A stretch of 4,888 bases of DNA from IMG/VR virus record IMGVR_UViG_3300029610_000167, positions 1-4,888 of that record. One strand, given 5' to 3'. Below are positions 1,250-4,523 of this stretch, piece by piece. The DNA comes from a virus. Taxonomy: Duplodnaviria > Heunggongvirae > Uroviricota > Caudoviricetes. The notes beneath the pieces were generated by a model. The model was given only the letters and a program-made list of their open reading frames with translations. It was not told the DNA's origin and ran no database searches. The position numbers and the translations under genes are program-made. Numbering within the stretch: the first letter of the stretch is position 1; each line of letters starts with the position of its first letter.

Positions 1250-1561
1250 TTATCTTGATAAAGCGTTATTAATATTTTGACAGTAACGGGAGGGAACCTT
1301 AATCGTGTGATTTTCGATTTCAGGTTCAAAAACTACAGAGTCAGCTTTGTAATAAGGGAAGTAAAGGATGTACTTTGGACCGGCAAAACCAGTGATATAT
1401 GTGTAGGCTTCTACTTTTGCCACCTCACCAAACCAAGTGTAACTTGAGTCGTTAGCCGTGATGCAGTCACCTTGAACATATTTTCCTTCAGAATCGGAGG
1501 CAAAGCATGCAGTGATTGTGCTGCACAGTAATAATATTAAAGTTATTTGAATTGCTTTCAT
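1250..1561 (-). CDS. Hypothetical exported protein or lipoprotein, ~103 aa, in an AT-rich moron; function unknown
   Basis: The track ORF 1250-1573 begins with TTG; the first ATG is at 1561-1559 with a weak GGAAAA upstream. The N-terminus MKAIQITLILLLCSTITAC-FASD has a basic n-region and hydrophobic core, with both a lipobox-like I-T-A-C and an A-x-A-type signal peptidase I site. The mature part has two Cys (GDC... and ...RYCQ) and is rich in Tyr. The gene is visibly AT-rich relative to its flanks and antisense to the late operon. Confidence 0.6.
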   Translation of the reverse strand: MKAIQITLILLLCSTITACFASDSEGKYVQGDCITANDSSYTWFGEVAKVEAYTYITGFAGPKYILYFPYYKADSVVFEPEIENHTIKVPSRYCQNINNALSR

Positions 1562-1872
1562 TTGTTTTTCCAATGCTTTGGTTCGTTAATTTGATTTTTT
1601 TCTAGCTTTCTTCATGAGCCCTTATAGATTTTTTAATTAATCTAACTAATCATCCTTCTTTGAAATACATCCTGAATTGGTGAGTCAGAACTCAGCTTAG
1701 GATAATCAGGAAATATTGCAACTAACTCTGAAACCAACAGCGTAGACCTTTTTTATCTTTGGTCTTTGAGGGAGTTTTAACCTCGTGCTTTGTCGTTAAA
1801 TTACCTCGTGAACAAACTTTCTGTCATTTAACGTCCCGGCCTTTTGTCGGCGGCGAAACATTGGCTATTCAT

Positions 1873-2178
1873 ATGCACGAAAAAGAGAGCCTTGCCGGAG
1901 CGTTCTGGCTCGTTTTGCTGATCATCGCAGGTTGGGGCGGTCTGGTCCGCTACCTGATAGATGTGAAGCAGAGTAAAGCAACGTGGAGTTGGATAAATGC
2001 TCTGGCTCAAATAGTGGTATCAGGATTCACCGGTGTTATTGGTGGCCTGATCAGCATCGAAAGTGGATTCAGTATTTACATGATTCTCGCGACAGCGGGG
2101 ATTAGTGGTGCGATGGGTTCGGTTGCACTGACGTACTTCTGGGAACGACTGACAGGGGTGAAAAATGCAAAATCTTAA
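1873..2178 (+). CDS. Putative class I holin (three predicted transmembrane segments), 101 aa; not lambda S-like
   Basis: Immediately upstream of and overlapping the endolysin gene by 14 nt. Three hydrophobic stretches (AFWLVLLIIAGWGGLVRYL; INALAQIVVSGFTGVIGGLISI; SIYMILATAGISGAMGSVALTYFW) and a short charged C-terminus ([11 protein letters not shown]). First ATG of the track ORF is at 1873; the 38 codons upstream of it start with TTG and look like read-through, not coding. Shine-Dalgarno is weak, so the start is uncertain. Confidence 0.7.
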   Translation: MHEKESLAGAFWLVLLIIAGWGGLVRYLIDVKQSKATWSWINALAQIVVSGFTGVIGGLISIESGFSIYMILATAGISGAMGSVALTYFWERLTGVKNAKS

Positions 2179-2641
2179 TCCTCAGCGCAAAGCCTTCCTC
2201 GATATGTTGGCGTGGTCAGAAGGAACGGATAATGGGCGACAACCGACACGTAACCACGGCTACGACGTTATTGTAGGTGGTGAGTTATTCACGGATTACT
2301 CCGATCATCCTCGCAAACTTGTCACGCTAAACCCAAAACTCAAATCAACAGCCGCCGGGCGCTACCAGCTTCTTTCCCGTTGGTGGGATGCCTATCGTAA
2401 GCAGCTTGGCCTGAAAGACTTCTCTCCCAAAAGCCAGGACGCTGTGGCATTGCAGCAGATTAAAGAGCGTGGCGCTTTACCGATGATTGATCGCGGTGAT
2501 ATCCGTCAGGCAATCGACCGTTGCAGCAATATCTGGGCTTCACTGCCGGGGGCTGGTTATGGTCAGTTCGAGCATAAGGCTGACAGTTTGATTTCAAAAT
2601 TCAAAGAAGCAGGCGGAACGGTCAGAGAGATTGAGGTATGA
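2165..2641 (+). CDS. R: Endolysin R, lambda-type lytic transglycosylase, 158 aa
   Basis: The translation is near-identical to lambda R as I recall it ([148 protein letters not shown]). Its stop overlaps the Rz start (ATGA at 2638-2641). Confidence 0.95.
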
Positions 2642-3099
2642 GCAGAGTAACCGAGATTATCTCCGCTCTGATTATCTGCATCATCGTCTGCCTGTCATGG
2701 GCTGTTAATCATTACCGTGATAACGCCATTACCTACAAAGCCCAGCGCGACAAAAATGCCAGAGAACTGAAGCTGGCGAACTCGACAATTACTGATATGC
2801 AGCTTCGCCAGCGTGATGTTGCTGACCTCGATGCAAAATACACGAAGGAGTTAGATGATGCGAAATCTGAAAATGATGCTCTGCGTGATGATGTTGCCGC
2901 TGGTCGTCGTCGGTTGCGCATCAAAGCAGTCTGTCCGTCCGTGCGTGAATCCACCACCGCCTCCGGCGTGGATAATGCAGCCTCCCCCCGACTGGCAGAC
3001 ACCGCTGAACGGAATTATTTCACCCTCAGAGATAGACTGATAATAATGCAGAAACAACTGGAAGGGACTCAGCAGTATATTAAGGAACAGTGCAGATAA
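2638..3099 (+). CDS. Rz: Spanin inner-membrane subunit Rz (i-spanin), 153 aa
   Basis: N-terminal transmembrane segment ([17 protein letters not shown]) followed by a charged coiled-coil-like periplasmic domain; the sequence closely matches lambda Rz from memory. Start is coupled to the R stop. Confidence 0.95.
2858..3040 (+). CDS. Rz1: Spanin outer-membrane lipoprotein subunit Rz1 (o-spanin), embedded in the +1 frame of Rz
   Basis: Entirely inside Rz in a different frame. AGGAG (2846-2850) lies 7 nt before ATG 2858; an in-frame ATG at 2855 is an alternative start and gives the 61-aa track ORF. Lipobox VVVGC, proline-rich [18 protein letters not shown]; matches lambda Rz1 from memory. Confidence 0.9.
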
Positions 3100-3123
3100 A
3101 GTTGCCCATATTGATGGGCAACT
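3100..3123. terminator. Perfect hairpin between convergent Rz and bor; candidate bidirectional terminator
   Basis: AGTTGCCCAT (3100-3109), 4-nt loop ATTG, ATGGGCAACT (3114-3123): a perfect 10-bp inverted repeat starting 1 nt after the Rz stop and ending 7 nt before the bor stop. The flanking U-tracts are only moderate on either strand. Confidence 0.5.
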
Positions 3124-3130
3124 CATGCAA

Positions 3131-3424
3131 TTATTGTGAGCAATATACCCGTGCTTCCAGCGGAGTATAAATGCCAAAAGTGATGAAACCGAGCAATCCA
3201 TTTACGAATGTTTGCTGGGTTTCTGTTTTAACAACATTTTCTGCGCCGCCACAAATTTTGGCTGCATCAACAGTTTTCTCCTGTCCAATTCCCGAAACGA
3301 AGAAGTGATGGGTGATGGTTTCCTTTGGTGTTACTGCTGTCGGTTTGTTTCCAACAGTAAATGTCTGTTGAGCACATCCTGTAATAAGCATTGCCAGAGC
3401 GGCAGAAAACAACATTTTTTTCAT
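3131..3424 (-). CDS. bor: Bor lipoprotein (serum-resistance / Iss-family outer-membrane lipoprotein), 97 aa
   Basis: From the ATG at 3424-3422 the product is MKKMLFSAALAMLITGCAQQTFTVGNKPTAVTPKETITHHFFVSGIGQEKTVDAAKICGGAENVVKTETQQTFVNGLLGFITFGIYTPLEARVYCSQ, near-identical to lambda Bor from memory. Lipobox LITGC; AGGA precedes the start. The track ORF 3131-3472 carries 16 extra N-terminal codons that I do not consider coding. Confidence 0.95.
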   Translation of the reverse strand: MKKMLFSAALAMLITGCAQQTFTVGNKPTAVTPKETITHHFFVSGIGQEKTVDAAKICGGAENVVKTETQQTFVNGLLGFITFGIYTPLEARVYCSQ

Positions 3425-3440
3425 CTTATTATCCTGCATT

Positions 3441-3469
3441 GTTAAAAACGGCAGAATCCTATGTGACAA
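3441..3469 (-). promoter_or_regulatory. Candidate bor promoter (minus strand): -35 TTGTCA, 17-bp spacer, -10 TTTAAC
   Basis: Read on the minus strand: TTGTCA (complement of 3464-3469), 17-nt spacer, TTTAAC (complement of 3441-3446), about 20 nt upstream of the bor ATG. Hexamer match only, so a weak call. Confidence 0.3.
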
Positions 3470-3854
3470 CAATTAAACGATAGTTAAATGAATTGATGAA
3501 AATTAAAACTACACAGGTGGACGCTCAGACTATTGGAGGGAGTTGGGGACACTCAGAATCCTGTGGAATGAAATAAACCGCTCTATCTGTCCTTTACCCT
3601 TTTAGCTGCGCTGTATCGTCGCCGTATTCCCGCATTAACAATGACCGTAGCCCGACGGGGAACTCCTCTGCGCGAGTGTGCGGAAATAATCAAAAACGAT
3701 GCACACCGGGTTTTTACCGCGCTAATTATTCGCGGGTTTGTCCCTCATGCTCGCAAGTTCTGTGTGGGGGCGAAGAAACAGGACATGTATTCTAGTCTGT
3801 GCGACCGTGGTCGTTCAGATTTTCATTCGTTTTGCGGAGTAAACCAGAGCGGTT

Positions 3855-3905: not shown

Positions 3906-4016
3906 AACGGCTGGTTTTTTGCATTTTATCGGCATCATCATCTTTTATCTAACCTGTTGATATTTCAGTTGTGAAATTATTCACGATGTCGATTCGCTTA
4001 AATATTGTTCATCATC

Positions 4017-4523
4017 ATGGATAACGAACTGAAAAATCTTCGCCTCAATATTAACCAGCTGGCGGCGCTGACTAATCTGCATCGTCAGACCGTCGCAAGT
4101 AGACTGAGCAATGTTGAGCCTGCCCCCGGAAGTAACTCCCGCCTCAAGCTGTATTCGGTTCTGGATATTCTCAGGGAATTACTGGGCAGGACTACGACGC
4201 CGGAGCTGGTTGCTGTTGACAAAATGACACCGCCGGATCGAAAGGCATGGTTTCAGTCTGAGCGGGAGCGCCTCAAGTTTCAGCAGGAGACCGGAGAGCT
4301 TATCCCGGCCTCAGAAGTCAGCCGGGAGTTTGCCTCAATGGCAAAAGTTGTCGTTCAGGTACTGGAAACGCTACCGGATATTCTCGAGCGTGACTGTGCA
4401 ATGACACCGTCAGCCGTCGTCAGGGTGCAAAAAGTCATAGATGACCTGCGGGATCAGATTGCCATGAAGGTTGAGCTGGCAGAGTCGCCGGAACAGGAGG
4501 ACAGTTTGTCACAAGAGGAGTAA
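4017..4523 (+). CDS. Putative terminase small subunit (Nu1-like DNA-recognition subunit), 168 aa
   Basis: Immediately upstream of the GpA-family large terminase, with its stop 3 nt before that gene's ATG. The N-terminus has a helix-turn-helix-like segment (LNINQLAALTNLHRQTVASRL), and the C-terminus is acidic. The track ORF starts at TTG 4005; the first ATG is 4017. No clear Shine-Dalgarno, so the start is uncertain. No clear sequence identity to lambda Nu1. Confidence 0.65.
   Translation: MDNELKNLRLNINQLAALTNLHRQTVASRLSNVEPAPGSNSRLKLYSVLDILRELLGRTTTPELVAVDKMTPPDRKAWFQSERERLKFQQETGELIPASEVSREFASMAKVVVQVLETLPDILERDCAMTPSAVVRVQKVIDDLRDQIAMKVELAESPEQEDSLSQEE

Follow-up and report, generated by a model that had tools for sequence, protein, structure and literature searches.

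Mosaic joint in the holin/endolysin overlap of a lambdoid lysis cassette, with signs of later reshuffling in R

We have analysed a stretch of 4888 nt of DNA, called the window throughout, which is a lambdoid late region in which a holin gene of family PF16083 overlaps the gene of a lambda-type endolysin, R. We will show that the two genes meet at a real mosaic joint inside their overlap. The joint is of a known kind: modular exchange at the borders of genes is textbook knowledge for lambdoid phages, and the holin/R joint is an ordinary case of it. The small additions made here are a divergent block in R that is linked to the holin and a decayed dual start of the holin gene. For the holin/R cassette as a whole, we consider it highly probable that a hard, non-homologous joint was formed and that the R gene behind it was then reshuffled by homologous recombination.

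The cassette is already annotated in more than 1000 public genomes, and in the literature searched we found no paper on this particular holin/R combination. It has little significance beyond annotation. It can serve as a teaching example of an endolysin whose ribosome-binding site and start codon are owned by the upstream holin module, and of one ancient illegitimate joint followed by many homologous crossovers.

Layout of the lysis cassette

The features of the window are as follows, the strand being given where it was recorded:

34-261: 3' end of rusA
258-398: ylcG-like ORF
395-1063: Q antiterminator, family PF06323
1068-1096: pR'-like promoter
1152-1178: terminator
1250-1561, minus strand: 103-aa ORF
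1824-2171, plus strand: holin module, found along with the PF16083 holin in further phages and prophages (from nucleotide homology edges)
1832-1855, plus strand: small predicted hairpin over GGCGG, where the closest relatives have GGAGG (from single-sequence folds)
1861-1872, plus strand: vestige of an upstream (long-form) start, TTG-GCT-ATT-CAT (Leu/fMet-Ala-Ile-His; from alignment with relatives)
1873-2178, plus strand: holin coding sequence, 101 aa, PF16083 (Phage_holin_3_3), with three predicted transmembrane domains (TMDs) and a basic C-terminal tail
2154-2160, plus strand: Shine-Dalgarno-like AGGGGTG for R, inside the holin 3' coding sequence (read from the sequence)
2165-2178, plus strand: holin/R overlap of 14 nt, with R in the +1 frame relative to the holin
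2165-2641, plus strand: endolysin R, a lambda-type lytic transglycosylase of 158 aa without signal or SAR sequence
about 2172-2176: putative non-homologous ('hard') recombination joint, between the last base common with holin relatives (2171) and continuous lambda homology (2177)
2177-2290, plus strand: holin-linked divergent R block, about 75% DNA identity to lambda/HK022, one amino acid differing
2285-2293: putative homologous ('soft') crossover inside R, where identity to lambda/HK022 goes from about 75% to about 95%
2291-3478: lambda-like block with the remainder of R, Rz, Rz1 and bor, 91.5% nucleotide identity, no gaps up to 3432
2638-3099: Rz (Pfam match)
2855-3040: Rz1, embedded in Rz (Pfam match)
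3131-3424, minus strand: bor (Pfam match, Bor)
4005-4523: DUF1441 small terminase, followed by the start of the large terminase

Taken together, Q, pR', the holin, R and Rz/Rz1 very probably constitute a standard lambdoid late-lysis cassette. Rfam and tRNA scans within 1873-2200 gave no match, and a terminator-like site at 1894-1909 inside the holin coding sequence is at chance level (2 found and 1.1 expected). The ORFs at 1828-2010 (minus) and 1983-2105 (plus) were rejected as spurious, both lying inside the conserved holin coding sequence and without independent support. As to the 103-aa minus-strand ORF, its ATG-start product is on record and the TTG-start version is without match.

The holin scores 77.7 bits against PF16083 (cut-off 28.4, E 7.5e-22, profile positions 2-78 of 78) and is thus of the LydA/ST64T gp13 type, the same family being carried by all 120 of its listed homologues. 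RefSeq WP_000544528.1 is 100% identical to it. Neither the holin nor R has a family in NCBIfam, and no relative of the holin is in the PDB. The original prediction described it as a three-TMD protein with no resemblance to lambda S, and both points agree with the calculations. BLASTP between the two proteins gives an E value of 8.6, hhalign a profile-profile probability of 0.4%, and there is no Pfam match of the holin to PF05106, the family of lambda S. The hydropathy peaks (residues 7-25, 44-62 and 68-86) and the helices of the AlphaFold (AF2) model (2-32, 40-64 and 68-94; pLDDT 74) agree in number. The charges, with a net -1 at the N-terminus, +1 in loop 1 and +2 in the C-terminal tail, form a pattern compatible with N-out/C-in. 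However, P1 LydA, the namesake of PF16083, is reported with two predicted TM helices, together with a separate antiholin LydB and a SAR endolysin (PMC9025707), which makes the inference of topology insecure at the level of the family.

The holin is a small membrane protein that has TMDs and ends in a charged tail, and its gene lies immediately before R and overlaps it. The lysis mutation 13-am43 of phage L maps to the homologous gene 13 (PMC8022706), the product of which is 73% identical to the window holin by tblastn; the mutated codon corresponds to Gln46 of the window holin. This provides indirect genetic support for a holin function in the PF16083 family.

The overlap of the last 14 nt of the holin with the R start, as first described, is seen in the ORFs 1873-2178 (101 aa) and 2165-2641 (158 aa). 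The R protein is identical to lambda R at 150 of 158 residues. It begins with MQNLNP and lambda R with MVEINN, so that residues 2, 3, 4 and 6 differ, as had been noticed; half of the eight differences are in overlap codons, the remaining ones being at residues 27, 63, 144 and 157. The match to lambda lysozyme (PDB 1AM7_A) has an E value of 2.1e-101 over residues 2-158, with the WSEGTD motif and its Glu19 identical. The earlier description of R, Rz, Rz1 and bor as almost lambda-identical was right in that they are close homologues, but it was overstated: protein identities are 94.9% for R, 89.5% for Rz, 86.7% for Rz1 and 90.7% for Bor, the DNA identity over 2177-3432 is 91.5%, and in the first ~125 nt of R it is as low as 66-75%. 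The N-terminus of R is hydrophilic and of the same length as in lambda R, with no signal or SAR sequence, and R would depend on a large-hole holin.

In the lysis pathway that we envisage, Q-dependent late transcription from pR' would pass the terminator at 1152-1178. With three TMDs and an N-out/C-in topology, the holin would build up in the inner membrane and then trigger, letting the signal-less transglycosylase R reach the wall. Since R has no signal or SAR sequence, the holes would have to be large and canonical, not pinholes, in order to pass the folded 18-kDa enzyme. Rz/Rz1 would disrupt the outer membrane after R. The ribosome-binding site of R lies within the last codons of the holin, which makes it probable that translation of R is coupled to that of the holin.

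The junction between holin and R

The position originally suggested for the recombination joint, in or just before the overlap, is borne out by the homology edges from both sides. The window and lambda were compared gap-free in one register, with the R start codons superposed. Per 30-nt interval, the identity is 8-14/30 left of 2155, rises through the overlap, and is 25-30/30 from 2290 on. It goes from background to 75-96% within less than 10 nt, a break that is not due to chance. BLAST puts the beginning of the homology to lambda and HK022 at 2170 and local alignment puts it at 2177, and left of 2170 BLAST finds nothing in the window homologous to lambda. The lambda-like R-Rz-bor block, 1.3 kb long, has the joint as its left edge and ends at about 3478.

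Seen from the holin side, homology with the relatives stops at 2163 in Klebsiella phage ST11-VIM1phi8.2 and coliphage 716R3, and at 2171 in ST64T, Serratia Eta and Hafnia Meifeng. At the other end of the module the edges are at 1824 (DLL557), 1828 (TUM18781), 1834 (Klebsiella phage) and 1848 (716R3). Four endolysin types are found as partners of the PF16083 holin elsewhere, namely GH108+PG_binding_3, Peptidase_M15_4-like (an assignment under the Pfam cut-off), GH24 phage lysozyme and GH19, and the holin relatives standing before these four unrelated endolysins have 68-80% nucleotide identity. R, for its part, is found behind two PF05106 holins, lambda S and a 24%-identical holin in phage 666R9. 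The transition is thus confined to 2163-2177, and each flank occurs in other combinations elsewhere, as mosaic modules do.

The fine structure of the junction can be read from the 3' end of the holin gene. GGG(G/A)TGAAAAATGCAAA is common to the window, ST64T and Hafnia Meifeng, the latter two having it before unrelated endolysins, and the divergence after it is complete. The three also have GTGAAAAATGCAAA at the holin 3' end in common. This shared sequence indicates that the Shine-Dalgarno sequence, the ATG and the Gln2 codon of R belong to the holin module. We propose that recombination, either non-homologous or by microhomology, linked a PF16083 holin module to a lambda-type R-Rz-Rz1-bor block. 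The holin 3' coding sequence would have supplied the R ribosome-binding site and the ATG with the first two codons (ATG-CAA-A), and the holin's last two codons and stop would be read from R-side sequence. It should be added that an 'MQxLN' N-terminus is also present where this holin is absent, in the R allele that phage 666R9 carries (ATGCAGACACTTAAT, without overlap). Either parent could consequently have contributed 2165-2176.

One can also imagine that there was no recombination at all, that is, that the holin is a lambda S homologue which diverged in place and that the N-terminal differences in R come from dual-coding constraint. Pfam does name both families 'holin superfamily III', both proteins are predicted to have three TMDs and are of similar size, and R codons 2-5 are dual-coded in both phages. 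This reading is nevertheless contradicted, and we give it next to no probability: the holin has no sequence or profile similarity to S, the identity jump described above takes place within less than 10 nt, and the holin relatives precede four unrelated endolysins with homology ending at the same spot.

A joint in the overlap being accepted, its age can be judged from its distribution. Two public assemblies (L012/L013) are 99.8% identical to the window over all 4888 nt. Over 1758-3520, the identity to phage PhiR47_2 (PV340567) and to E. coli SCU-111 is an even 93-94%. Of 5426 complete E. coli genomes, 1006, O157:H7 and ST131 included, were matched at 92-98% identity over at least 80% of its length by a 428-nt probe spanning the joint. 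Exact-pattern scans of species-representative genomes, with a 36-mer of the insert and a 26-mer of the junction, gave no match. Among the IMG/VR loci with a 99-100% identical holin, the junction is invariant through R nt 16 in 80 out of 80. Since holin and R are inherited together in PhiR47_2, in the two assemblies and in the 1006 E. coli genomes, the joint is old and shared and not this prophage's own event. According to the original prediction, holin and R co-inherited from one known phage with uniform identity would refute the joint. PhiR47_2 formally presents that situation, but the joint is still present in it, as an ancestral one.

The opposite scenario, in which a lambda-like phage has freshly swapped its S gene and the joint is a recent event of this prophage, draws on the abruptness of the break, which is seen relative to lambda alone. 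It is refuted by the near-identity of the two assemblies over the whole window, by the even 93-94% match of PhiR47_2 and SCU-111 over holin, R, Rz and bor, and by the frequency of the joint in complete E. coli genomes. Moreover, nothing lambda-like is left of 2170, Q being of a different family (PF06323), and the chance that this scenario holds is negligible. Instead, the joint would have been formed once, long ago, and the E. coli prophages that now have it, without change, make up a large family.

A comparison with known systems places the cassette further. Lambda S-R-Rz-Rz1-bor (NC_001416 45186-46752) has the same gene order and a holin/endolysin overlap in the same +1 frame, of 17 nt compared to 14 nt in the window. 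The R, Rz, Rz1 and Bor proteins are 87-95% identical between the two, with identical lengths of R and Rz. The holins, on the other hand, belong to different families (PF16083 in the window, PF05106 for S), the Q proteins are unrelated, and the 5' block of R has only about 75% DNA identity.

The closest cassettes are those of PhiR47_2 and of the E. coli strains with WP_000544528.1 (SCU-111, O157:H7 ATCC 43889). They have the identical holin protein and junction, the order Q, holin, R, Rz, bor/iss, and 93-95% nucleotide identity. The window differs in having a 586-nt replacement (1184-1769) with the 103-aa minus-strand ORF in the Q-holin interval, and its downstream small terminase is DUF1441-type, whereas theirs is Nu1-type. 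In PhiR47_2 the R gene is frameshifted, unlike in the window.

Gene 13 of the P22-like Salmonella phages ST64T and L is also a PF16083 member, 73-74% identical, with the same 14-nt overlap and the same GTGAAAAATGCAAA 3' end, within which the endolysin start lies, but its partner endolysin is a 132-aa Peptidase_M15_4-like protein and not R. P1 LydA belongs to PF16083 too and is probably a distant relative only of the window holin, P1 being absent among the tblastn matches listed (best 60 of 117 records, E <= 1e-3). P1 is reported to have the soluble antiholin LydB and a SAR endolysin encoded elsewhere (PMC9025707), whereas in the window R, a soluble transglycosylase, follows the holin without an intervening gene. 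In a survey of Stx phages, most cassettes were of a different type, with SAR endolysin and pinholin (PMC8136144).

The divergent block within R

We now consider the first part of R, where a second layer of exchange can be recognized. The identity of R to lambda in 50-nt bins is 74%, 66% and 86%, and then 92-98% up to the end of the gene. A maximum chi-square scan locates the step at R nt 121-129 (window 2285-2293), with values of 43.5 for lambda and 52.9 for HK022 that were reached by none of 500 permutations. Left and right of the step, the mismatches are 30/117 and 16/348 with respect to lambda, and 28/109 and 12/356 with respect to HK022. The divergence of the block is almost entirely silent: codons 7-42 have synonymous changes at 23 of 36 and one non-synonymous change, and codons 43-158 have 14 synonymous and 3 non-synonymous changes among 116.

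The block follows the class of the holin. Comparing eight R alleles that accompany this holin with three that accompany S, we find for R nt 13-126 a between-class identity of 84%/72% and a within-class identity of 98%/87%. From nt 127 on, the between-class and within-class identities are equal, which means that R alleles mix freely there. The region R nt 1-135 occurs in 29 haplotypes in a set of 78 loci with the same holin. R nt 1-16 is invariant in them, and only nt 17 varies before nt 24. The position at which lambda-like tracts begin differs among the prophages, the earliest being at about R nt 43 (L044).

This pattern of variation suggests to us that a single illegitimate joint came first and that R alleles then exchanged sequence in many homologous crossovers, least of all near the non-homologous edge. 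Later homologous recombination would have reshuffled R 3' of the joint and left a holin-linked block of about 115 nt (2177-2290).

A different option is that only the joint at about 2290 is meaningful, the holin having come with its own diverged R-type endolysin onto which a lambda-like 3' part was pasted later, so that the overlap would be no joint. The identity step at 2285-2293 is indeed highly significant, R nt 13-126 is specific to the holin class, and R nt 1-16 is common to all the R-joined holins, only one site being variable as far as nt 23. However, relatives of the holin pair with non-R endolysins, their homology stopping at 2163 or 2171, and given such partners, a joint in the overlap between a PF16083 holin and an R-type gene must have arisen at some stage of the ancestry. 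In addition, the soft breakpoint is not at a constant position among prophages. We regard a single joint at 2290 as quite improbable, and prefer the hard joint in the overlap with reshuffling thereafter. A joint at 2290 is in itself compatible with one in the overlap, as a more recent stage of a common history.

The start of the holin gene

The absence of a lambda-style dual start, which had been pointed out from the beginning, is evident: the holin has no Met-Lys-Met and no second in-frame Met before residue 70. The alignment with relatives adds to this a vestige directly upstream, at 1861-1872. At this position, ST64T and the Klebsiella phage have ATG-GCx-AAx-CGT (Met-Ala-Lys-Arg), and of the 120 homologue clusters, most of those called from the upstream ATG begin with MAKR-M, MKR-M or MAKH-M. 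A GGAGG Shine-Dalgarno sequence precedes the upstream ATG in ST64T, the Klebsiella phage and 716R3. In ST64T and phage L, unlike in the window, the Met-Ala-Lys-Arg-Met dual start is intact and its Shine-Dalgarno sequence is GGAGGTG.

The base-for-base alignment of the Klebsiella phage with the window is TCGGAGGCGGTAACTATGGCTAAGCGTATG versus TCGGCGGCGA-AACATTGGCTATTCATATG. The changes in the window are GGAGG to GGCGG (1849-1853), ATG to TTG, Lys to Ile and Arg to His, and what remains, TTG-Ala-Ile-His-ATG without Lys or Arg, is not a dual start of the S105/S107 type. The clusters with the R-joined tail (VKNAKS or VKNAKP) all have the AIH form or are called from the downstream Met without the extension. 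Among 80 near-identical loci, the upstream codon is TTG in 74, GTG in one, and GCG, which is not a start codon, in five. The start at 1873 itself has no good Shine-Dalgarno sequence at normal spacing.

In the S107/S105 pair of lambda, the long form is an antiholin through its extra N-terminal positive charge. A long form in the present case would add no positive charge, from which we infer that the antiholin isoform has been lost. Judging from the alignment, a lambda-style antiholin isoform is probably no longer made in the branch of the window.

The alternative to be weighed here is that the TTG at 1861 is a working upstream start and that a functional two-product holin/antiholin system of a non-lambda kind has been kept. 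The predominance of TTG in close relatives (74/80, with GTG in one more) would fit with this, as would the choice of TTG as start by the annotators of PhiR47_2 and the G-rich GGCGGCG located 5 nt upstream. Five close relatives have the non-start GCG, however, both basic residues that define the motif are gone, the long form adds no positive charge, and RefSeq calls the 101-aa product. We therefore consider a working TTG unlikely. Loss of the antiholin isoform from the entire R-joined branch, with the Shine-Dalgarno sequence, the ATG and both basic residues gone and some thousand E. coli prophages timing lysis with a single-product holin, is put forward tentatively, the odds being slightly against it.

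If such a loss has occurred, it would represent a natural 'antiholin knock-out' that went to fixation along with the change to the lambda R endolysin, and the divergent R block of about 115 nt would be a measurable 'linkage shadow' of a non-homologous joint on an adjacent shared gene.

A hairpin covering the Shine-Dalgarno sequence, similar to sdi of lambda, was considered as well. It is predicted in all six phages, but its z-scores of -0.76 to +0.74 are not significant, and the alignment fold has 3 pairs only, with essentially no covariation. The MAKRM relatives and the AIH-M branch, whose holin cores are 70-88% identical in protein, form a natural comparison for lysis timing.

Alleles of the endolysin gene R and its downstream joint

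In phage vB_EcoS-666R9 (interval 2157-2978 of L004), the R allele encodes the N-terminus MQTLNS (ATGCAGACACTTAAT), which is similar to the window's sequence in the holin/R overlap. There, however, R follows a PF05106 holin that has an MKM start; 3 nt separate the two genes, and the overlap is absent. Its nt 13-66 are nearer the alleles found behind the PF16083 holin (87.5%), while nt 67-126 are nearer lambda (85%). The 666R9 allele is itself recombinant; given its N-terminus, either parent could have contributed window 2165-2176.

In the deposited phage PhiR47_2 (L001, 3382-3857), a frameshift at about codon 89 splits R into two CDSs, both annotated as 'lysozyme R'. Either the deposited sequence contains an error here, or this isolated phage has a defective endolysin.

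Three of the compared prophages (L010, L014 and L018) have Q, holin and R as in the window, and their homology to it ends at about 2577-2616, near the 3' end of R. Downstream, DUF2570/LysC-type spanins and a P27-type terminase replace Rz/Rz1-bor and the DUF1441 terminase. This loss of homology marks the R/spanin boundary as a further module joint.

As to nomenclature, RefSeq calls the lambda-R-type enzyme (2165-2641) 'glycoside hydrolase family 24 protein'. PF00959, the Pfam model for phage lysozymes, gave no match to it, and the protein matches structure 1AM7, the lambda lytic transglycosylase. The RefSeq name looks imprecise.

The region between Q and the holin

We now turn to the sequence upstream of the holin, which contains the following features.

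1068-1179 (interval containing the promoter): pR'-like promoter, TTGCTA-17-TATATT, upstream of the terminator
1152-1178: strong terminator, 3' of the promoter
1250-1561, minus strand: ORF of 103 aa whose product has a signal peptide and an ITAC resembling a lipobox

At 1184-1769, 586 nt of the window replace the sequence present in E. coli SCU-111, O157 ATCC 43889 and PhiR47_2. The 103-aa ORF lies inside it and has no Pfam or NCBIfam match; all six compared contigs that carry this ORF have it between Q and this holin. In other prophages the slot is taken by a DUF3800 gene or an ORF of 111 aa, and in view of this differing cargo the gap looks like a moron insertion site. In Stx phages, stx occupies the equivalent position.

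The Salmonella sRNA isrJ has an Rfam match at 1100-1179, over the full model length but sub-threshold (27.1 bits, where the gathering score is 37). This match hints at a likeness between isrJ-type sRNAs and lambdoid late-leader (6S-like) RNAs.

The bor/iss gene

The Bor homologue (3131-3424, minus strand) shares 90.7% identity with lambda Bor. In the closest complete E. coli genomes it bears the label iss, 'increased serum survival', and the lysis cassette of the window is therefore among the common carriers of iss/bor alleles.
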